A stretch of DNA of 64,000 bases from Candidatus Micrarchaeum sp. (GCA_020723065.1 DYJP01000002.1:7464-71463), one strand, 5' to 3'; positions 33,820 through 64,000 are shown, numbered from the stretch's first letter. A program made the numbers and translations. The notes: generated by a model from the sequence alone, not told the origin.

Positions 33820-33925
33820 GCAGGGGTGCCAGAGCCAGGTCAAACGGGTCAGATTCAGTATTGAAGACCAAGCTTAGGACCTGATGCGCGTAGGCGCTGC
33901 GTGGGTTCAAATCCCACCTCCTGCA
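33820..33925 (+). tRNA. tRNA-Leu (anticodon TAG), class II with long variable arm and a candidate 19-nt intron at non-canonical position 30/31
   Basis: Acceptor stem GCAGGGG/CUCCUGC with discriminator A. T-arm GUGGG-UUCAAAU-CCCAC. Variable-arm hairpin GCGC-GUAG-GCGC. Removing 33853-33871 restores a perfect anticodon arm UCAGG-CUUAGGA-CCUGA. The D-arm pairing could not be resolved by eye. Confidence 0.55.
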
Positions 33926-50486: not shown

Positions 50487-50807
50487 ATGACTAAAACACT
50501 ATATATTAAGAAGTATAAAATAATGAACGATTTACTCTCTCAAATCAAGGGACTTATGTTTTCAAAAAAAATTAAAGTTCCATTGATATTTGTATTTAAA
50601 AAGGATGTTAAGCTCTTATTTCATTCAGCATTCTGCCCCAAATTCGACATAGTCTTTTTAGATAAAAATAAGCGGACCGTATATACTGAAGAAGTAAGGA
50701 AAATGAAAATAATCAAACCTAAAAATTATTACAGATACGTTATTGAAGCCGCTCCTGGATTCATCAAACAAAATAGAATAAGAAAAAAAACAAAAATAAA
50801 TTTCTAA
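50487..50807 (+). CDS. DUF192 (COG1430) family protein
   Basis: GLMF...PLIFVF...FDIVFLDKNKRTV...YVIEAAPG pattern of DUF192. Confidence 0.5.
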   Translation: MTKTLYIKKYKIMNDLLSQIKGLMFSKKIKVPLIFVFKKDVKLLFHSAFCPKFDIVFLDKNKRTVYTEEVRKMKIIKPKNYYRYVIEAAPGFIKQNRIRKKTKINF

Positions 50808-50819
50808 GATGGCCAGAAT

Positions 50820-52037
50820 TCATCGTTTGGAGCTTTCCTTTCCTGCAGTTATTCTGAGAGTTCCGCCGACTTCCTTTATTGTGACATCTATATTCTTGGA
50901 ATTCTCAAAGCACTCCCTTATCTGGTCAAGAGAATAATTCCTCATTGCGGCAATGTTGGCAGATATCGCTTCATCTGTTATGTCTTTCGCTACTTTCGAT
51001 TCGAACTGCTGCTTGAATACCTTCATGTCGATCTCGAAATAAAGGAGCCTTAGAGGGGATTCCTTATCCTTCTCTTCTTTCCTTCCTACTTCCAACTTCT
51101 GGAATAGGGAGGATCGTATCTCTTTCTGTTTTATGAACGTGCTAACTCTTCTAAATTCTGCGTCAAGTTCGGATAATAGATTGTAAGCGGAATCATTTTC
51201 TGCTGCTAAAAGGAACGAAGAATCTCCAAGGTAAGATATGAATATCTTTTCCGGAGAATCCGCTATCTTGTCCTGTAGCATTTGAGAAACGAGCCTTACT
51301 ATTTTATTCTTTTCCTTTTCGGTATAAAGCTCTGCGTACTGATCTATTCCTTCTATTTCAAGTTTAATGAATTTACTGTTTTCCTCATTAAGATAAAGTG
51401 CAATATTCTTAACGAGCCTTTCGACATCTGGAAGATCGACAAGCGGATCGAATATGTTTCCGCTCTTCTGAAGAAATATATTCGCAAGTGCCCTGAGTTC
51501 CATCGGTTCGAATGGTTTCTTAATGTAGTAGTCAGCCCCGTATTGTATACCGTGGAATCGATTTACTGTAGCATCTGCTGCAGAAACAATAACTACGATT
51601 ATGTTTTTGGTATCTGGCGCTGATTTGATCTTTTTACAGACATCCAATCCATTTATGCCCGGAAGCATAAGGTCTAAAAATACAAGATCTGGCTTAAAGG
51701 TGTTTACTTTTTTCAACCCTTCTTCTCCATCATATGCAGAGTCGATTTCATACCCTTCGCCTAATGATAGTTTGATAAGGTTATTTATATCTTTGTCGTC
51801 TTCCACGATCAAAATTTTCTTCGGTTTTGTGAATTCAAGAACGTACCAAAAGTCCAACTTTCCTACTGCTCTTGATTCTATCTTGCCTTTTGTTTTAAGC
51901 CTTACTAGTGTGCCTTTAACTTCCTCTTCGGAATAACTGGAAAATTCCTTGATTATTTCCTTTGTTTCTAAAGCGATATCTTTAGCTTTTAAGAATGAAA
52001 GGAGCTCTTGTTCAATTTTTAGATCATCAATTTCCAT
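50820..52037 (-). CDS. Response regulator: N-terminal wHTH-like region, CheY-like receiver, and a degenerate GGDEF-like output domain
   Basis: Receiver KILIVEDDKDINNL...KPDLVFLDLMLPGINGL...KKPF. Output domain DPLVDLPDVERL (DxLTGLxNR-like) ... SYLGDSSF in place of GG(D/E)EF. The start is trimmed to MEIDDLK (ATG 52035-52037). Confidence 0.6.
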   Translation of the reverse strand: MEIDDLKIEQELLSFLKAKDIALETKEIIKEFSSYSEEEVKGTLVRLKTKGKIESRAVGKLDFWYVLEFTKPKKILIVEDDKDINNLIKLSLGEGYEIDSAYDGEEGLKKVNTFKPDLVFLDLMLPGINGLDVCKKIKSAPDTKNIIVVIVSAADATVNRFHGIQYGADYYIKKPFEPMELRALANIFLQKSGNIFDPLVDLPDVERLVKNIALYLNEENSKFIKLEIEGIDQYAELYTEKEKNKIVRLVSQMLQDKIADSPEKIFISYLGDSSFLLAAENDSAYNLLSELDAEFRRVSTFIKQKEIRSSLFQKLEVGRKEEKDKESPLRLLYFEIDMKVFKQQFESKVAKDITDEAISANIAAMRNYSLDQIRECFENSKNIDVTIKEVGGTLRITAGKESSKR

Positions 52038-52114
52038 AAACTCACTACGCAAGACAAGTATACAATAAAAGATTGATTGTAAAGAAATTAAAAGGTTAGT
52101 GTGAAAAATGATAT

Positions 52115-54061
52115 ATGGCGGATGCAGGGGATCAAAATATTGGCAAAATGCAACCAACTATATTAGAACTAGCTGAGCTGGAAAAGGAAAACTCAACAGC
52201 TCAGAAAATCGAGCCGAAAATAAATGAAAAAAATAATGTTAGAAGATATGAAGTGAGGTATAGGCCAGACTTCCAACAAAATGATTCTTTTCAATTACTA
52301 TTTAGACATATAGGTGAACCAGCGGTTCTAGTAGACAACAAAAAAAGGATAATGGATGTAAACCCGTCCTTTTCAAGAATGACTTCTTATCAACGAGAGG
52401 AAATTATTGGAAAAAAAATAAACAGCATATTAAGAAAAAACACTATTTTGACAAAAAACAACGGAACTAAGGAATTCGAGGCTAATGAGATTAAGATAGG
52501 TCTTAGCACATTGTATCTTTTCATAGATAAGAATGAAATAGATACTAAATTTAAGATATCTAACGAGCTTGAAGCACTAAAAACACACTTAGATGATTTT
52601 GTAATAAAGGTAAAAAAAGATGGAAAGATTATTTACATGAATCCAAATTTTAAGACCGTATTTTCAAATGCCTCTGAAGGCGAAAACTTAAAGAATTACC
52701 TTAAAATTAATAAATTTCATTCAAAACTGAAAATTGCGAGCGAAACTGGTCAACCTGAACTTTCTGAAGGAACAATGGAAATAAATGACAAAGGACAGAT
52801 AAGGAATTGTCCAATAAACGTGAAAATAATACCATCCAAAGAAGAATTAATAATTATAGTAAAAAATCAAATTGAAAAACTAGATCTTAACAAGCAAATA
52901 GAAGATGCAAAGCAAGAATACGAAGCCATAGTCAACAATGTCACCGATATTATTTGCATAATAGACAAAAAAGGCAAGTTTCAATTTGTAAACAAGCAGT
53001 TTGAACGGCAGCTTGGGTATAAGAAGGAGAATCTCCCCTTACTTCCCCAAATAATCTATCATGAAGACCTTCCAAAATTTCTTCAGACTCTTACTGAAAT
53101 AGAAAGAAACAATAGAGGTTTTCAAGAACTTGAAATAAGCCTTTATACCTCTAAACGAAAACTACTCAATTTCTCAGCAAGTGGAATATCTAAGATATCT
53201 GATGGAAACGACGTGAGATACAGTGTCACCTTAAGAGATATTACAGCAAAGAAAAAAAGTGAAAATGAAACTGCAAAAGAAAGGGAAAAATTGAAAGAAG
53301 AATACAAAAAGATGAAGGAAATTAATGAAATGAAAACCAATTTCGTAAGCATGGTATCACACGATCTTAAAACACCACTTACAAACATACAAGGATACGC
53401 TTCTCTCATGAGAAACAAAATATTGGGACCGAATAATCCGAAGCAGCAGGAAGCAACAGAAATAATAGACAAGGAATCTAAACGTCTCGCCAAACTGATC
53501 AACGACCTTTTAGATCTTTCAAAAATAGATGCGGGGGCTATGGTCATACAGAAGAAACCGTTTAAACTTAAAGATTTAGAAGACAAATGCTCCTTAAAAC
53601 ATCTCGCAGAAAAGAAAGGTTTGATACTTATATGGAACACTCCTGAATCGCTCGGCGAAGTTTATGGAGATCCAGAAAGAATAGCCCAAGTTCTCACCAA
53701 TCTTGTAAATAATGCGATCAAATTTACAGATCACGGATCCGTGACTGTCAATGCGTTCGAAAAAGGAAAAGACAATATACAAATTGATGTTATAGACACC
53801 GGACTGGGAATACCTAAAAAAGACCAGGAAATGATTTTTGAAAGATTCCAGCGAAGTAGTACTTCCTTGAAATTCAAAAAAGAAGGAAGTGGTCTCGGCC
53901 TTGCTATCGCAAGAGAGATAATGAAGCTTCATGACAGTGACATAATGGTCAAATCAGAAGTAGGTAAAGGAAGCACGTTTAGTATAATATTAAGTAAAGC
54001 ACCGAAGCAACAAAATGAAAGAGACAAGGTTAACGACTATCTCGAAAAGATGACCCATTAA
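52115..54061 (+). CDS. Cytoplasmic PAS-domain sensor histidine kinase
   Basis: Multiple PAS-like repeats. HisKA VSMVSHDLKTPLTNIQGYASLM. HATPase_c N-box LTNLVNNAIKFT and G-boxes DTGLGIP / GSGLGLAIA. No TM helices. Confidence 0.8.
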   Translation: MADAGDQNIGKMQPTILELAELEKENSTAQKIEPKINEKNNVRRYEVRYRPDFQQNDSFQLLFRHIGEPAVLVDNKKRIMDVNPSFSRMTSYQREEIIGKKINSILRKNTILTKNNGTKEFEANEIKIGLSTLYLFIDKNEIDTKFKISNELEALKTHLDDFVIKVKKDGKIIYMNPNFKTVFSNASEGENLKNYLKINKFHSKLKIASETGQPELSEGTMEINDKGQIRNCPINVKIIPSKEELIIIVKNQIEKLDLNKQIEDAKQEYEAIVNNVTDIICIIDKKGKFQFVNKQFERQLGYKKENLPLLPQIIYHEDLPKFLQTLTEIERNNRGFQELEISLYTSKRKLLNFSASGISKISDGNDVRYSVTLRDITAKKKSENETAKEREKLKEEYKKMKEINEMKTNFVSMVSHDLKTPLTNIQGYASLMRNKILGPNNPKQQEATEIIDKESKRLAKLINDLLDLSKIDAGAMVIQKKPFKLKDLEDKCSLKHLAEKKGLILIWNTPESLGEVYGDPERIAQVLTNLVNNAIKFTDHGSVTVNAFEKGKDNIQIDVIDTGLGIPKKDQEMIFERFQRSSTSLKFKKEGSGLGLAIAREIMKLHDSDIMVKSEVGKGSTFSIILSKAPKQQNERDKVNDYLEKMTH

Positions 54062-54065
54062 TAGA

Positions 54066-56117
54066 TTATTTCTTTTTTGCTTCTAGTTTCTTTATTTTCT
54101 TTACTGTTCTTGGTTTTTCTGCTGCCTTTTCTGATTTTCCAACATTCTTGTTAGAAGAGCAATATGGATTAAGGCATTTTTGATACCTTTGTTTTCCTTT
54201 TATCACCCATATCTTTGGAGAAGAGCAAATGTCGCAAGACCCGGCATATGTGAAAAGATATGTTGGGGGTAAAGAGTACGTTATTTTACAATTTGGATAG
54301 TTGCTGCATCCCAGGAACTTGCTTCCTTTGTAATTTATAATTTTTAGATAGCCGCCGCACTTGCAAGGGGCGAATTTTTCTGATTCTTCCAATTGACTTT
54401 TTAGAAAAGTTCCTATTTCTTTTTCGTGATTAAAAATATCGTTCATAATTGATGAAATAATGTTTTTTGCATCTTCGATTACTTTGTCCTTACTTACTTT
54501 TTTATTCTGTATCTTTTCCATCTCTTCTTCAAGCTGCCTTGTAAGAGTAGGATCAAGTATTTTGGGTGAATATTGCTTGAATGTCTGGTATATCGCTTTG
54601 CCTAATGGAGTGATTGTAAGCTGCTTTCCGTTTACATAACCTCTCTTATATAATGTATCTAAAACAAGGGCTCTTGTTGTTTTTGTACCTATATTCTCCT
54701 TTTCCATAAGCTGCAAAATAGATGCAGGTGTATATCTTATAGGTGGAGTTGTTGTTTTTTCGGTTATATTTATCTTGGTAATGTTTACATCCTGACCATC
54801 CGTAAATTTGAGTTTATGGTCTTTTTCATTCAAGAACGGATAGAATTCATACCAACCTCTTTTGACAATCTCTGGAATTGAAGCATTATATGTTTCTCTT
54901 GCATTGAGAGTTAGCTTATTGTCTTTTATTTCCGCGGGATCTGCAAAACATGCAAGAAATCTGTAAACAATTAAATTGTAAAGCCTTTCTTCATCCTGAT
55001 TCAATTTATCCTTGTTTCCCGTAGGATATATTGCAGGATGTACGTCTTCTTTTTTGCCTTCTCTCGGTCTGAATTTATTTTCATTTATTAATTGATTAGC
55101 CAAGTTTGTAAATGTGGAATTCTGAGAAAGCTGCTTGATTATGTTTCTTACATTTATTTGTGGCGGAAGTTTTTGGGATGCTGTTCTAGGATAGCTGATC
55201 AATGCTTTTTCATATAAGGATTGAGCAAGCTCTTGCGTCTTAACTGGAATATAACCATATATTCTATAAGCTTCAGTTTGCAAGGAGGTGAAATCAAAAG
55301 GGGGAAGTGTATAGACTTTTCTAATTGAAGAGACAATGGAAATCTTTCCTTTTTTATCTGTATTATTCTTTGCTGTTTCTGCTTCATCTTTTTTCTTAAA
55401 TGGATTTTTAGTATGTAAAAATGAAATTTCTTCCACTTCAGCATTAACTTGCCAATAAAGTTCTGGTTTAAAGTTTGCTATTTCTTCTTCTTTTTTAAAA
55501 AGAAAATAGAGCATTGGACCCTGTACTCTCCCTATTGACAAAACTCTGAATCTACCTGCATTCCTTATTGCGTTCATCACTGCCCTACTTAAATTTATTC
55601 CATAAAACCAATCGATAATGTGCCTTACTTCACCTGCATATGCGTTGTCAATATCAAAATCAATAAGATTATGATATGATTCTTGAAGTTCAGAAGGAGT
55701 GACTGTGGAAAATTTCATTCTTTTTGCTTTTTTTATGTCACTGAAGTTTCGAATAATATTGTATCCAATCAAGCTTCCTTCTATATCGAAATCTGTCGCA
55801 TTAATAACTAAGTCTGCGTTTTTTACTAGATTTTGAAGATTATCTAAATAATCTTTAATATACCATGCTGTCTTGTTAATTTGATATGAGGGAACCCATT
55901 CAAGATTAAAAATCGGTAATACGTTTGTTTTCTCCTTTAATGTAAATAAATGACCTACTGCTGGAGAAATAAAAATTGTTTTATTGTTGTTTTTTAACTC
56001 GTAATAAGACACTTTTTTGTAAACCTTTCTAGTAAGGGAAATAAATTCTGGTTTTAATGCGTATGCTATCTTCTGTGCAACAGACGGTTTCTCTGCAATA
56101 ATTACGATATTTTCCAT
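54066..56117 (-). CDS. topA: DNA topoisomerase, type IA (Topo I/III-like) with C-terminal zinc ribbons
   Basis: Toprim N-terminus IVIIAEKPSVA...DFDIEGS, a catalytic Tyr region, and C-terminal C4 zinc fingers (CKCGGY...CSNYPNC, CDICSS...C). Confidence 0.85.
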   Translation of the reverse strand: MENIVIIAEKPSVAQKIAYALKPEFISLTRKVYKKVSYYELKNNNKTIFISPAVGHLFTLKEKTNVLPIFNLEWVPSYQINKTAWYIKDYLDNLQNLVKNADLVINATDFDIEGSLIGYNIIRNFSDIKKAKRMKFSTVTPSELQESYHNLIDFDIDNAYAGEVRHIIDWFYGINLSRAVMNAIRNAGRFRVLSIGRVQGPMLYFLFKKEEEIANFKPELYWQVNAEVEEISFLHTKNPFKKKDEAETAKNNTDKKGKISIVSSIRKVYTLPPFDFTSLQTEAYRIYGYIPVKTQELAQSLYEKALISYPRTASQKLPPQINVRNIIKQLSQNSTFTNLANQLINENKFRPREGKKEDVHPAIYPTGNKDKLNQDEERLYNLIVYRFLACFADPAEIKDNKLTLNARETYNASIPEIVKRGWYEFYPFLNEKDHKLKFTDGQDVNITKINITEKTTTPPIRYTPASILQLMEKENIGTKTTRALVLDTLYKRGYVNGKQLTITPLGKAIYQTFKQYSPKILDPTLTRQLEEEMEKIQNKKVSKDKVIEDAKNIISSIMNDIFNHEKEIGTFLKSQLEESEKFAPCKCGGYLKIINYKGSKFLGCSNYPNCKITYSLPPTYLFTYAGSCDICSSPKIWVIKGKQRYQKCLNPYCSSNKNVGKSEKAAEKPRTVKKIKKLEAKKK

Positions 56118-56681
56118 TCAATCACAAAATAAATTTAAAAATTTCTATTAAGATAATAAAACAGAAATAGAAATATAAAAGTATTTTGAATTTTACAGAA
56201 AAACACAAGACGGACCCCTTAATTCCAGTAATAATGGAATTTTCTGAATATTTAATTCTAATAAACTAGAAATAAACTGTTTTAAATTAAGCTATTTTAT
56301 TTTTGTAATAAAATTAATATCTTCTATATTTATTTTATAATAATCTATCCAATCAAGATAATCTTTAAAAAATAGATCTATTTCATTTTGATATTCGTTT
56401 TCGATTAGGAATATTTGGTTTTTTAAAAATAATTTAATTTTTATGTATTTGTTTAATTTTTTAAAATTATAATAAAATCTTCTTTTAATTGTATTTTTAA
56501 CTTTTTTAGATGATGATTTTATTTGAAAAAGATAAAGAATAGTCATATTGTAACTTTAGTTACATAAATTTATATATTTATTTATAATATTGGAACTAAC
56601 CCCTCCCCCTATCAACTAAAACTGTATAAATTTAAAAGTAATCAGAAATTTACTAAAAAAAGGTAAAAAAAATAAAAAAGA

Positions 56682-57233
56682 CTAAACTACTCTTAAAACA
56701 CTGTCCTTTTTAACTCCATTTAAAATATATGAATAAGTCCTGTAATGAACATATGCATTAATTTTTACTGGTGCATTTCCAGGTGGAGTTGTACTATTTG
56801 ACCAAATCGGAACAATTATTGTATAGCTATCTCCTTTATTTAAATAACCCACTCTTATCTCTTTTGTTCTATGGATACCTGTTTGGTCAAGACCTAAATT
56901 GTTTCCAACTTCAATAACTAAAGAAGTTAAAACAGTTTCATTTGTCATGTTCTTAATCTTAATTTCTAAATCACATCTATCTATTTTGTGTGATGAAATT
57001 CTAACTGGATTAAACGAAGTTTTTATATCAAATGGAACTTTTTTTGCAATAGGACTTACATCCTTCTTTCCAAATAAATCTAAAATACCCATAAACCCAC
57101 TCTTCTTATTTTCTCTGACGAGATATTCATATTTTATTTTATAGCATTCCTTTATATTAGTTTCTTTTACTAACTTGTTTTCTTCGTTATCGAATAGGTT
57201 TTTAAATATTATACTTAATATCTCATTATACAC
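56682..57233 (-). CDS. Hypothetical protein (183 aa) inside a low-GC island
   Basis: Intact ORF with no recognisable motif. Its GC is markedly lower than flanking genes. Confidence 0.35.
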   Translation of the reverse strand: MYNEILSIIFKNLFDNEENKLVKETNIKECYKIKYEYLVRENKKSGFMGILDLFGKKDVSPIAKKVPFDIKTSFNPVRISSHKIDRCDLEIKIKNMTNETVLTSLVIEVGNNLGLDQTGIHRTKEIRVGYLNKGDSYTIIVPIWSNSTTPPGNAPVKINAYVHYRTYSYILNGVKKDSVLRVV

Positions 57234-57239
57234 AATGAG

Positions 57240-57467
57240 GTGTTTTTAATGGGAAAGAAAGTAGGATCTGAAAAAATTAAGAGAGAAGATGGTTATCTGT
57301 ACTACGTTGGAAAAGACGGTTTTGTATGGAGAGCACCAATGAAGGCAAACAAGAAAGGAAGAAAAGGAAAAGTTGGTTCTGAAAAAATTTCCAAGAAGGA
57401 TGGTTTCATGTACTACGTCGGAAAAGACGGATTCGTATATGAAGCAAAGATGAAGAACGTAAGATAA
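57240..57467 (+). CDS. Small basic protein with two tandem ~35-aa repeats (GSEKI-K-DG--YYVGKDGFV---MK)
   Basis: KKVGSEKIKREDGYLYYVGKDGFVWRAPMK / GKVGSEKISKKDGFMYYVGKDGFVYEAKMK. A GAGG-like RBS lies upstream. Confidence 0.4.
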   Translation: MFLMGKKVGSEKIKREDGYLYYVGKDGFVWRAPMKANKKGRKGKVGSEKISKKDGFMYYVGKDGFVYEAKMKNVR

Positions 57468-57555
57468 CTTAACTTAATTTCTTTTTTATTTTTTCTTTAT
57501 TTTTCTCATTTTTGATTTTTATATATTTAATTAATATTGGTCTGTATCTAATTAG

Positions 57556-57628
57556 TGGGGTCGCTGAGATTTGAACTCAGATCAACAGCTCCCAAAGCTG
57601 TCAGCATACCAGGTTAGCCCACGACCCC
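57556..57628 (-). tRNA. tRNA-Pro (anticodon TGG)
   Basis: Acceptor GGGGUCG/CGACCCC with discriminator A. Anticodon arm ACAGC-UUUGGGA-GCUGU. T-arm CUGAG-UUCAAAU-CUCAG. CCA is not encoded. Confidence 0.8.
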
Positions 57629-57706
57629 ATCAAATAAAAAATCAGAACGTACGCTTACACTATATTACATTCTACATTTTAAAATATTACTCTACGACTA
57701 TATATT

Positions 57707-58051
57707 ATGAAGCAAGTAATTGTTTTTCGTGAAGATCTCAAACTTGGAAAAGGTAAACTTGCAGCTCATGCAGCTCATGCAGCCATAGTCGGATATGAAT
57801 TAATTAGCAAAAAAGACAAAAAATTACTGTTTAAATGGTTAAATGAAGGTCAGAAAAAAATAGTAGTAAAAGTCAAAACAGAAAAAGATTTGTTTACTCT
57901 TTATGAATCTATGAAAGAAAAGATTCCATGTCAAATAATAAGTGATGCAGGACTCACTCAAATCGCCCCAGGTACCGTAACATGCATGGTAATCGGGCCA
58001 TGGTATGAAAAAGAGATAGACCCTTATATTTCAGAATTAAAGCTCCTTTAA
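57707..58051 (+). CDS. pth2: Peptidyl-tRNA hydrolase, archaeal/eukaryal PTH2 type
   Basis: GKLAAHAAHAA and DAGLTQIAPGTVTCMVIGP motifs of PTH2. Confidence 0.85.
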   Translation: MKQVIVFREDLKLGKGKLAAHAAHAAIVGYELISKKDKKLLFKWLNEGQKKIVVKVKTEKDLFTLYESMKEKIPCQIISDAGLTQIAPGTVTCMVIGPWYEKEIDPYISELKLL

Positions 58052-59610: not shown

Positions 59611-59721
59611 GCTCCAATCGTCTAGCCCGGTCAAGGACGTAGCCCTTTCAGAAACTTTTGAAAAGTTTCATCAAAAGTCTAAAGAAAGGCTAAAACTCGG
59701 GTTCAAATCCCGATTGGAGCA
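59611..59721 (+). tRNA. tRNA-Glu (anticodon TTC) with a 36-nt canonical-position intron
   Basis: Acceptor GCUCCAA/UUGGAGC with discriminator A. D-arm GUC-UAGCCCGGUCAAG-GAC. Anticodon stem UAGCC/GGCUA enclosing the loop CUUUCA plus intron 59651-59686, which contains a GAAACUUUU/AAAAGUUUC hairpin. T-arm UCGGG-UUCAAAU-CCCGA. Confidence 0.7.
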
Positions 59722-61261: not shown

Positions 61262-64000
61262 ATAAAGAATTATGAGAAAGGAGATTTAGTATTAGCTAGC
61301 TCACAGATCGCGTTAGCTCTCTGTTTACACTACTAACCTATCAAACGGGTCTGCTACCCGCTCTCACGTTTGACTAGTTTTGGGAGATCCTTCGACCTTA
61401 GATGCTTTCAGGTCTTATGATTCGATGCGTGGCTGCCCGGCAATACTTTCAATAACCGGTATACTAGAGGCACCCGTCCCCTGTTCCTCTCGTACTCAAG
61501 GGGCGCTACCCTCAGTCAAAAACACTCCTAGTAGATACTACCGTACTGTCTCGCGACGTACTGAACCCAACTCGTGTATCTCTTTAATGGATGAACAAAC
61601 CAACCCTTGGGAGCTCCTACACTCCCAGGATGAGATAGGTCGACAGCGATGTACCAAGCCGCGGGGTCGATATGTACGCGACAGACTAGTGCTTTTAAAC
61701 GAAGACTAAACTGTCGCAGGGTACTCTCGCCCGCGACGAGCCTGTTTTGGGTCTTAACAGCTACAACTGGGACATAATTATCTTAAAATACGATATGGTT
61801 GAGAAGGAATGTATTTAAGAGAGGAGTGTATGTCCGATTACGTACGCAACTGAAAAGATTACCCCCGAGGTAACTTGTCTGACAGATTGAGCCCTTAACA
61901 AAAGGATTTCAATGTTCGTTAAGCCCGGCTTTCGCCTCTGCGTCCCACGCTTTTAAGAACACAGTCAGCCTTGCATTTCTCTTTAACCGTCTTCACCCGA
62001 CGTTCAGTGATCGAATGATGATTTGCGTCATTCGCTGTTGGCCTCTTCATATTAACGCACTAGGATTATGCAAACACTTGCGTGTCCACATCCTGCCTTT
62101 ATAGACAGATGTGCATCAGAGGTTGTTCATAATATCATCCGCGCATCGTTCGGTCATTTCTGACCGGGTTGAGCAAAGCTTTGGGCGCCCTTATTTCCTT
62201 ATTGAGGGCGTACTGCCCCAGCCAAACTATCCACCAGCCGCTGTTCCATTTCTGGTTAGAAACACAAAAAATGAAGAGTGGTGTTACACTTTTGCATCCG
62301 CCTCAGCCGCGACCGAGGTTTCTACGCTCCCACTTACGCTCTGCAACATTCTATGAATTCCAACGACAGGCTATAGTAAAGTTCTACGGGGTCTTCGTTT
62401 CCCACTAGGAGTCCTCCGCATATTCACGGAGTAGTGAGTTCACTAGGTCCCTCGTTGGGACAGTGGAAGAGTCGTTATGCCCTTCATGCAAGTCGCCAAT
62501 TAAGCGACGAGGTATTACGCTACCTTAAGAGGATCAGAGTTATCCCCGCTCTTCGCCAGCCCTTAAATCCCTTGAACGAGATGTTCGGGTACTGGTAGTG
62601 AGCAGGCATCGGCACCTATACTCGACGTTTCCATTTTGCAGGTACCTGTGTTTTTGATAAACAGTCGCTCTTCCCTTGTTACTGAGACTTGCACATGCAC
62701 CGTAAGGTACAAGCGCAGGTAATCCTTCTACCGAAGATACGGATCTATTTTGCCGAATTCCCTAACGAGAGTTCCCCTAACACGCCTAAGCTTATTCAGC
62801 TAGCCACACTTGTACTAGTTCTAGGTACGATCATCACGGATCGGATAGAACAACTTTTCACTGATCCAAGGTCTCAACAGAACCCCCAAACGAGGGCTGC
62901 TCATGCCTTGTACTGCTTCTCCTCATAACGAGACTCCACAGTATTATGTCACTTGAACAGAATCACTTCTGCTCCGTCTAACCTCAGATGTCATGTTTCT
63001 ACCTTGTGTTGCCACGTCTACCATGATGGTACAGGAATATTAACCTGTTTCCCATTCGTCCCCGAGTAATTAGCTGGGGCCTTAGGATCGACTAACTCTT
63101 GGCTGACAAACGTTGCCAAGAAAACCGTGGGCTTTCGGCGTACCGGATTCGCACCGGTATTTGCTGCTACTAACTCCAGGATATTTATTGCAATACAGTC
63201 CATTGGAACTCACGTCCCAACTTCGCTCTGTACCGCACACCTCCCTACCGGATCACACTTTTTGAGTGTGCCCTTGGGTCTCAGCATCCAGTTTAGTCCC
63301 GTTCATTTTCGGCTTGTATATATCTCCCAACAAAGTTGGTGTCGAACGGTCCGCTATTACGCGTTGCTTAGACGATGGCTGCTTCTAAGCCTACGTCCCG
63401 TCTGTCTAGATATATACCTTCCTTGTGTCTTCACACTTAACTGGAATTTTGGGGCTTTAACCCAAGACTCGTTCGTTCACGTCACGGCTCACCAGCTTAC
63501 CCGGTGAAACCCGACTCTCTATTTCTACGATGATTGTAGATTCGGAGTTTGACAATACAGCAGGCTCTTTCGAACCTATTCTGTCTAATCAGTGCTCTAC
63601 CCCACAATCTATCTCCATAAAGGTCATCCTAGGGGATGCTTCGGGAGGAACCCGCTATCGCGATGCTCGATTGGACTTTCACCCCTACACAGAAGTCACC
63701 AAAACAGATATACTAGAATTTGTTGCGGTCCTCCACCAGTCGTTAGACTGGCTTCAACCTGCTTCAGTGTAGTTCGCAACCGTTTCGGGTAAGATTATAG
63801 TGACTACACGCATTTTCATACGACGCGCCTCGTTCAGCACTACGCGCAATTGCTTTCGCTTCGCCTTTCGGCTCGCCACTACCATCTACTCCCTGGATCT
63901 TGTTTCGAGAAGTACGATACAACGCTGATCAGCTATTTTGGTCCACAGCCTTGCGACTGTATTCTTCAATAGCGTCGTCTCTTTAACGCCGTATCAACCT
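61262..64000 (-). rRNA. rrl: 23S ribosomal RNA, 3' ~2.7 kb; the 5' end lies beyond the window end
   Basis: The reverse complement contains universally conserved domain V/VI sequences: CUGAAAGCAUCUAAG (plus strand 61397-61411), GGGUUCAGUACGUCGCGAGACAGU, AACAGGCU...CAUAUCGAC (PTC/H89), and GUUGAUAGG-type helix 101 near the 3' end. Confidence 0.9.

Follow-up and report, generated by a model that had tools for sequence, protein, structure and literature searches.

Why would an archaeon keep a diguanylate-cyclase fold in a two-component regulator? The question is raised by a pair of divergent genes in a 64,000-nucleotide stretch of Candidatus Micrarchaeum sp. (GCA_020723065.1 DYJP01000002.1:7464-71463), here called the window, within which all positions are counted from the first letter. 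One gene encodes a sensor histidine kinase of 648 amino acids (aa) plus stop (52115-54061, plus strand) and the other a response regulator of 405 aa plus stop (50820-52037, minus strand), with 77 bp between them. The machinery of cyclic di-GMP (c-di-GMP) is almost absent from archaea (PMC5847659, PMC8646023). Galperin, Makarova, Wolf & Koonin (2018, PMC5847659) found regulators with GGDEF or EAL outputs missing from most archaea, and asked whether bacterial-type regulators in unfinished archaeal genomes are genuine or contamination. Braun et al. (2021, PMC8646023) found no c-di-GMP in Haloferax or Sulfolobus and reported many BLAST matches to GGDEF domains in Asgard and DPANN archaea.

Our analysis suggests that the pair is a lineage-typical two-component system of the Micrarchaeota (DPANN), in which a dead GGDEF domain would act as a non-catalytic module coupling the receiver to a DNA-binding winged helix. 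We put the probability of this overall picture at roughly 60%; the identification of the domain is much more certain than that, and the role of the dead domain much less so. The layout, a winged helix-turn-helix (wHTH) followed by a receiver (REC) and a degenerate GGDEF domain, is already known from the 2018 census, though uncharacterised (PMC5847659), and our literature search found no other paper joining Micrarchaeota and GGDEF. What is new here is that the family is phylum-wide, unmistakably archaeal and tightly linked to a kinase, with a fully conserved phospho-relay and a variable former active site.

The degenerate GGDEF domain of the regulator

Scanned alone, the window protein gives no Pfam GGDEF match at E ≤ 1, and only its receiver is seen. 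The identity of the C-terminal domain, whose core spans aa 195-318 (51084-51455, minus strand), emerges at the level of the family. Among 67 full-length orthologues scanned singly, 36 match PF00990 at E ≤ 1 (best 6.9e-6), and a score of 22.9 bits (E 8.1e-5) was obtained for the A_DKE regulator (Ca. Micrarchaeum sp.); by this comparison the window protein belongs to a diverged subclade in which Pfam no longer detects the domain. Family profiles searched against PDB sequences returned 6eib on top each time (6.6e-4, then 2.4e-4 with a deeper profile) and DosC at 2.4e-3, and 13 of the 19 matches at E ≤ 1 were GGDEF proteins, all in the same register. Alignment by hhalign of a 55-sequence family profile with ten bona fide GGDEF domains (nine plasmid-encoded cyclases and the protein P0039) gave a probability of 94.3% and an E-value of 1e-7 over 120 columns, from the DxLTGLxNR motif to the SiGVA strand (window aa 195-318). 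The same comparison against the single sequence P0039 was uninformative (probability 0.2%), and a word-index search seeded with a fragment of 6eib returned three proteins.

The predicted structure points the same way. An AlphaFold (AF2) model built with a 25-sequence family alignment reached a mean predicted local distance difference test score (pLDDT) of 77 and a predicted template-modelling score of 0.73; the single-sequence model, at pLDDT 38, was useless. The family-based model contains a winged helix (aa 1-67), a receiver (aa 73-190), a palm-like beta-alpha-alpha-beta-beta-alpha-beta core from aa 205 and a poorly resolved tail after about aa 305. With the whole model as query, the top Foldseek matches in the PDB were WspR (3bre, 2e-13; 3i5a), DgcR and PleD, ahead of all receiver-only structures. 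When the C-terminal profile was run exhaustively with HMMER against 1.84 billion representative proteins, only 14 clusters were returned, 13 of which are the regulator family itself, the full-length ones with the winged helix and receiver ahead of the domain and the remainder fragments. The fourteenth, P0015, is a REC-GGDEF-CHAT protein whose matched region passes Pfam GGDEF (32.8 bits, E 7.3e-8). At 679 aa it is the nearest relative outside the family, consisting of a receiver, a degenerate GGDEF domain (GADTF), an uncharacterised region and a CHAT protease.

A few other candidates were set aside along the way. The renin receptor ATP6AP2 headed the list (E 0.016) when a two-sequence profile was run against the PDB, a spurious match that disappeared with deeper profiles, and a weak Tribbles match (E about 0.2) persisted with deeper profiles and was judged to be noise. 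An adenylate-cyclase or Cas10-palm identity was rejected, as the profile and fold matches are all specifically to GGDEF domains.

All the alignments agree on the register of the domain, and three motifs are notable in it. FDPLVDLP (aa 196-203; 51429-51452, minus strand) is the counterpart of DxLTGLxNR in the translation and the hhalign alignment, and its F, D, P, L, D, L and P are invariant in the family. The helix RLVSQMLQDK (aa 248-257; 51267-51296, minus strand), the most conserved motif in the family alignments and with an invariant R248, is the one that bears the guanine-binding Asp in active cyclases. GDSSF (aa 271-275; 51213-51227, minus strand) is the remnant of the GG(D/E)EF active-site loop; three independent profile alignments (6eib, DosC and hhalign) place it on GG(D/E)EF and FDPLxDLP on DxLTGLxNR, and in the AF2 model it lies in a loop between strands 265-271 and 274-280, that is, on the beta2-beta3 hairpin that carries the signature loop in the GGDEF superfamily. 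Taken together, the profile and fold comparisons indicate that the C-terminal domain and the GGDEF domain of bacterial diguanylate cyclases are truly homologous, beyond chance at the family level. A preliminary description of the locus had read it as a PAS histidine kinase with a REC regulator whose GGDEF-like domain is dead at its A-site, in an archaeon, and this core reading is upheld by profiles, hhalign and Foldseek. The strings that it quoted are present, including GDSSF within SYLGDSSF, and the three profile alignments put them in GGDEF register. Two checks that it proposed came out in its favour: comparison with GGDEF and cyclase profiles found the family-level similarity described above, and structure prediction gave the palm-like core and, for the whole model, WspR, DgcR and PleD as the best PDB matches.

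The confident part of the alignment ends at the SiGVA strand (about aa 318). Beyond it, the region of the C-terminal helix and strand (AD.ALY.AK..GRN) is covered only by a low-confidence hhalign extension, and pLDDT is low after aa 305. The tail (aa 319-405; 50823-51083, minus strand) has no Pfam or PDB match and a pLDDT mostly below 60, and it is conserved within the family, with the majority consensus YTYxELRxMLGSxxLDITITRDxxGVRLSVGK. Possibly it completes the palm fold and then continues into a lineage-specific extension with a beta-hairpin at its end.

The active site has decayed well beyond the signature loop. We use PleD position numbers, which we take to be correctly mapped through DIDxFKxIND..GHxxGD and RxGGEEF, motifs that can be seen in 6eib, in DosC and in the plasmid cyclases. 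In this numbering, the metal-binding D327 corresponds to E227 in the window (R or K in 59 of 78 relatives), D329 to E229 (acidic in 67 of 78) and K332 to D232 (A or G in relatives). The guanine-binding N335 corresponds to A235 (A in 62 of 78) and the guanine-binding D344 to N244 (I, M or V in relatives). At R366 the window has Y269, with F or Y in all 78 relatives, and GGEEF is replaced by GDSSF, for which the relatives' consensus is N[GS]DDF. The RxxD I-site is absent from its place five residues upstream of the signature loop, where residues 262-265 read P-E-K-I in the window and vary among the 78 relatives. Because the metal-binding Asp, the guanine-binding Asn and Asp, the GG(D/E)EF A-site and the RxxD I-site are all missing, no cyclase activity is expected, and the domain is predicted to make no c-di-GMP. 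The inactive A-site described at the outset, with GDSSF at the place of GG(D/E)EF, is thus borne out, and the loss is wider, extending to metal, guanine and I-site residues.

Clades differ in the former active-site loop: most members have N[GS]DDF, the window's clade has G[DE]SSF and another clade has GxGEF. Elsewhere the domain carries invariant or near-invariant family motifs, namely F196-D-P-L-x-D-L-P203, R248 in RLVSQLLQDK, F275 and E294-F-x-x-V-x-x-F-x-x-Q304. Lost catalytic residues together with invariant lineage motifs are, as judged from these alignments, what is seen when a fold is retained for something other than catalysis. The family would be a clean example of a cyclase fold retained hundreds of millions of years after catalysis was lost, and the result is not evidence for c-di-GMP signalling in archaea.

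Domain order, kinase and family

What lies N-terminal to the dead domain was only partly anticipated. The first ~70 residues (51828-52037, minus strand) are modelled by AF2 with H-S-H-H-S-S topology at pLDDT 83-94 (helices 2-19, 25-31 and 37-49, strands 53-58 and 61-67), in agreement with the H1-S1-H2-H3-S2-W-S3 topology of winged helix-turn-helix domains. Orthologues show similarity to wHTH families in Pfam, all below threshold: Penicillinase_R in 17, MCM4_WHD in 8, PaaX at 4.4e-5, and also TrmB, MarR and GntR. The wing residues R56, G59, Y65 and L67 are invariant in 67 sequences. The receiver that follows (aa 75-190; 51468-51815, minus strand) is matched by Pfam REC at aa 75-184 (E 5.7e-26), the only REC stretch in the regulator. 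It has the complete set of CheY-like residues, with the acidic pocket E79/D80/D81, the phospho-acceptor D122 (51672-51674), S152, the aromatic switch Y171 and K174, all kept in 78 of 78 proteins. It is closest to OmpR/PhoB-type receivers, at 36-42% identity to ArlR, VicR and a Chloroflexus aurantiacus receiver.

The preliminary description had correctly recognised the CheY-like receiver. Its two-domain regulator stands as far as the receiver and degenerate GGDEF domain go and falls short as a complete layout, since the N-terminal winged helix had been overlooked. Nor is the layout PleD-like, as had been proposed: with a single receiver and a winged helix, it is WspR-like instead. The suggestion that the dead cyclase fold is itself the output or effector also gives way, for the AF2 model and the orthologue Pfam matches make the winged helix the likelier output.

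On the kinase side, all features of a HisKA-type sensor kinase are present. Three PAS stretches precede the catalytic core: the first (aa 59-130; 52289-52504, plus strand) fits the model only in its N-terminal half (Pfam PAS, 5.2e-8), the second (aa 152-242; 52568-52840, plus strand) is weak (1.4e-3, with 19.0 bits below the 22.6-bit gathering score), and the third (aa 268-378; 52916-53248, plus strand) scores 1.7e-10. The HisKA dimerisation and phospho-acceptor domain (53330-53536, plus strand; 3.6e-23) contains the H-box SHDLKTP with H416 at 53360-53362, and the HATPase_c domain (53666-53998, plus strand; 9.6e-28) contains the N box (NNAIKF), G1 (DTGLGI) and G2 (GSGLGL). The kinase is soluble, without a membrane segment, because its highest 19-residue Kyte-Doolittle mean is only 0.84. 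A soluble, divergently transcribed partner with several PAS repeats had been described earlier, and this description holds. The protein is most similar to bacterial PhoR/PnpS/WalK-type kinases.

We propose that the cytoplasmic three-PAS kinase would sense a cytoplasmic cue and autophosphorylate on H416, from which the phosphoryl group would pass to D122 of the regulator. The phosphorylated receiver would then dimerise and so bring the N-terminal winged helices into a new position to bind DNA, the actual output. The dead GGDEF domain would serve as a structural or regulatory scaffold, a dimerisation or docking surface that couples receiver phosphorylation to the winged helix. This would echo WspR, DgcR and PleD, in which two GGDEF domains meet when the receivers dimerise. 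Phosphotransfer within this pair, DNA binding and the scaffolding role are what we infer; what we observe is the identity of the domains, the homology with GGDEF, the loss of the catalytic residues, the integrity of the phospho-relay residues, conservation across the phylum and linkage to a kinase.

The closest bacterial systems differ from this scheme in instructive ways. WspR of Pseudomonas (3bre/3i5a) and DgcR (6zxb), the best structural matches (2e-13 to 2e-11), have one receiver followed by a GGDEF fold, as in the window. As active cyclases they carry GGEEF together with an RxxD I-site, and they have no DNA-binding domain, whereas the window protein has lost the A-site, the substrate-binding residues and the I-site, has a short helical linker and has gained an N-terminal winged helix. 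PleD of Caulobacter (1w25/2v0n; structural match E about 1e-11 to 3e-10) is likewise a receiver-controlled GGDEF protein, but it is catalytically active and has two receivers (REC-REC-GGDEF) where the window protein has one; against NCBIfam PleD the window protein scores 81 bits, compared with a 474-bit cut-off, and only the receiver matches. With respect to domain order, the likeness is to the archaeal LtrR (Methanococcoides burtonii) and FilR1 (Methanosaeta), which carry the DNA-binding domain N-terminal to the receiver, the opposite of the bacterial OmpR order, and which, unlike the window protein, have no GGDEF-like domain (PMC5847659).

How widespread is the family? A scan of one genome per GTDB species with a six-sequence query alignment found relatives of the regulator in 222 species-level genomes, and the best 80 of the 222 loci were fetched. 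The family is nearly confined to Micrarchaeota/Micrarchaeia, including Ca. Micrarchaeum sp. A_DKE, whose chromosome is complete, and a metagenome-assembled genome (MAG) with a closed chromosome, and the closest relatives, at 70-73% identity, come from hot-spring Micrarchaeia MAGs. Six family members (L014, L027, L037 and L083-L085) lie in bins labelled Aenigmatarchaeota, 'ainarchaeum' and Marsarchaeota; either these bins are misassigned or the family extends slightly past the Micrarchaeota.

Linkage to a kinase was found in 61 of the 80 loci. The kinase is adjacent and divergent, as in the window, in 10; in 48 the order is kinase (plus), a further gene that we call gene X (minus) and regulator (plus); in 2 the kinase is adjacent on the same strand; and in 1 (L048) a minus-strand kinase lies about 1.2 kb upstream. 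A kinase is absent within 4 kb in 9 loci, and less than 3 kb of upstream sequence was on hand for the other 10. Gene X, divergent from the regulator, is homologous in 37 of the 48 loci (for example L017:4301-5299 and L072:4314-5333, both minus strand). It encodes a protein of 330-360 aa that is anchored in the membrane at its N-terminus, contains long runs rich in Ser and Thr as well as many NxS/T sequons, has a Cys at the C-terminus and matches no Pfam family. This product could be a surface glycoprotein, and the two-component system may have it as a target or a partner. No relative of gene X occurs in the window or in the window's clade. In one ENA contig (L007:5534-6741) the regulator is called as two genes, of 139 and 246 aa, which is probably a frameshift or assembly error and not a genuine split. 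Open reading frames (ORFs) of 500-639 aa in L018, L030 and L032 resembled fusions and were rejected as start-codon over-extensions.

We take the window family to be the one recorded in the 2018 census, based on the A_DKE orthologue and the shared architecture. That census lists "wHTH-REC-GGDEF (inactivated)" for Ca. Micrarchaeum, a type also entered as 'WspR-like REC + inactivated GGDEF', and its Table S3 gives UNLARM2_0239 (EET90385) as wHTH-REC-GGDEF, with a kinase two locus tags away (0237), and BK997_02000 and JJ59_05330 as REC-GGDEF. It counts one or two kinases and a single regulator in Micrarchaeum and Mia14 genomes, with one kinase and one HTH-containing regulator in the complete Mia14 genome (PMC5847659). 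The census regulators thus share with the window the three-domain architecture, encoded near a kinase, the phylum and the one-kinase, one-regulator economy; a second kinase, receiver or GGDEF-like gene was not found by tblastn in the 64-kb window. The 0237/0239 tag spacing fits the kinase, gene X, regulator order of A_DKE (L072), itself a family member. Compared with this Micrarchaeum type, the window protein is only about 30% identical in the C-terminal domain, has GDSSF in place of N[GS]DDF and has no direct Pfam GGDEF match, and its locus has a directly divergent kinase and lacks gene X.

The Micrarchaeota, DPANN archaea with reduced genomes, live attached to other archaea. Because the census genomes have a single regulator, relatives occur in 222 species-level genomes and the phospho-relay residues are intact, the regulator is probably the lineage's main, perhaps only, environment-to-gene switch. 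It would make a good entry point for asking what Micrarchaeota symbionts sense.

Possible roles of the dead domain

Three sets of observations weigh against a scaffold that controls a DNA-binding output. The first concerns DNA: alignment of the 77-bp divergent intergenic region (52038-52114) with five orthologous divergent loci revealed no convincing operator, TTTAAT being the only conserved element, and upstream of the regulator in the main clade we found no convincing binding site, only AT-rich TATA-like and GGCGAT/GGTGAC Shine-Dalgarno-like elements. The second concerns chemistry: most members outside the window's clade still have two acidic residues in the signature loop (N[GS]DDF) and another at PleD position D329, and residual metal or nucleotide chemistry in these relatives is possible. 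The third is the tail, whose conserved and poorly modelled last ~85 residues could carry a function of their own.

Non-catalytic use of the palm fold has precedents, for PopA, PelD, SgmT, GdpP/YybT and the GGDEF-like sensor of PucR/CdaR (Pfam GGDEF_2, PF17853) reuse it without cyclase activity. None of the 67 orthologues of the window family matches GGDEF_2; on P0039, PF17853 is co-annotated with PF00990. Degenerate GGDEF receptors are well established in bacteria, where PopA, PelD and SgmT sense ligands through such domains. By analogy, the dead domain might be a ligand sensor for GTP or a cyclic di- or oligonucleotide, possibly derived from the host, so that the regulator would integrate phosphorylation with a small molecule. 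The invariant lineage-specific surface motifs (FDPLxDLP, RLVSQLLQDK and EFxxVxPFIYQ) point to some conserved interaction, and acidic residues persist in the old active-site loop of most relatives. However, PopA, PelD and SgmT act through an intact RxxD I-site, which the window family lacks, residues 262-265 being variable; the N335 and D344 equivalents are Ala and hydrophobic residues; the clade-specific loops (GDSSF, GxGEF, N[GS]DDF) disfavour a conserved pocket; and c-di-GMP machinery is almost absent from archaea (PMC5847659, PMC8646023). We consider ligand sensing unlikely.

Alternatively, the output might be a protein-protein interaction, the dead GGDEF domain and tail docking on a partner, possibly the membrane protein encoded by gene X, while the winged helix does not bind DNA. 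Archaeal two-component signalling has been argued to act mostly in this way (PMC5847659), a membrane-anchored protein X is encoded between kinase and regulator in at least 37 loci, and no operator motif was detected. This proposal is again improbable, given that the winged helix is confidently modelled with invariant wing residues and that gene X is missing from the window and its clade, where the regulator is fully conserved.

A broader variant holds that the phylum-wide dead GGDEF domain, together with the conserved tail, is more than a scaffold and acts as a receptor for a nucleotide signal or a residual synthase of one; most relatives keep N[GS]DDF and the acidic D329 position. We regard it as doubtful. 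If it were true, the regulator would detect the coincidence of phosphorylation with a nucleotide that may come from the host, and a c-di-GMP-like signalling node would exist in a DPANN symbiont, in a domain of life thought to be without one.

A non-canonical enzyme activity, such as the ATPase reported for the degenerate GGDEF domain of YybT/GdpP or the synthesis of another nucleotide messenger, is very unlikely, and less likely still for the GDSSF clade. The DDF of the signature loop and the acidic D329 position in most relatives would suit it, and the title of Rao et al. 2010, as given in the reference list of PMC8646023, ascribes ATPase activity to the YybT GGDEF domain. Yet both signature acidic residues are Ser in the window, the metal-binding Asp and both base-binding residues are replaced there, and Arg or Lys takes the place of the metal-binding Asp in most relatives.

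Finally, the resemblance of the receiver and kinase to bacterial OmpR/PhoB-type receivers and PhoR/PnpS/WalK-type kinases, and the nearest outside relative being P0015, with its REC, degenerate GGDEF and CHAT domains, might suggest that bacterial DNA had contaminated an archaeal bin or that the gene had been transferred recently, an explanation that is scarcely credible: contamination is refuted by the archaeal gene context and by orthologues in complete Micrarchaeota chromosomes among the 222 species-level genomes. The pair lies in one contiguous window among archaeal housekeeping genes, has the GC content of its neighbours and is about 7 kb from an archaeal 23S rRNA (61267-64000). The immediate neighbours encode a proteasome beta subunit, aCPSF1 (KH/beta-CASP), a DUF192 protein, topoisomerase IA, thymidylate kinase and geranylgeranyl reductase, and the archaeal context of the window is unambiguous. 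The doubt voiced in 2018 is thereby settled for this family, in that these bacterial-looking REC-GGDEF proteins are real archaeal genes and not bin contamination. An ancient bacterial origin of the two-component system is plausible.

Gene starts, promoters and genomic surroundings

The gene calls and coordinates of the preliminary description were correct, with the two genes diverging across 77 bp. The longest ORF of the regulator is 50820-52157 (minus strand), with its upper end at a TTG at 52157. We place the true start at the ATG at 52037, because orthologue N-termini begin there, an independent JGI gene call, made on an identical metagenome contig, likewise predicts a product of 405 aa and the longer version overlaps the neighbouring gene.

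In the divergent intergenic region, TTTAAT is invariant across six divergent-type loci (the window and the L008-L013 equivalents) and lies about 25-30 nt from the kinase ATG. This position suggests a TATA box and a near-leaderless kinase transcript. On the regulator side, the window has a ~20-bp insertion relative to its closest relatives. In the main clade (L017-L087), a GGCGAT/GGTGAC Shine-Dalgarno-like element stands 4-7 nt before the regulator ATG and an AT-rich 'AATATTAT(C/A)CTTT' element about 40 nt upstream of it; kept across very divergent species, these are probably the ribosome-binding site and the promoter.

At its other end, the regulator is convergent with the small DUF192 (COG1430) gene (50487-50807, plus strand), the two stops being 13 bp apart, and the identical JGI contig carries this neighbour as well. 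On the kinase side, only 4 bp separate the stop at 54061 from the one at 54066, where the convergent topoisomerase IA gene ends, a gap too small for separate terminators. Further away, two tRNA matches (59611-59721 and 33820-33925, both plus strand) extend over 111 and 106 nt although the full model has 71 positions, all of which they cover, and probably contain introns, as is common in archaea. The lowest-GC part of the window, 56001-58000 (0.27, against about 0.33-0.48 around it), holds a tRNA (57556-57628) and two ORFs that match no Pfam family (56682-57233, 183 aa; 56292-56546, 84 aa); a small integrated element or rapid evolution could account for it.

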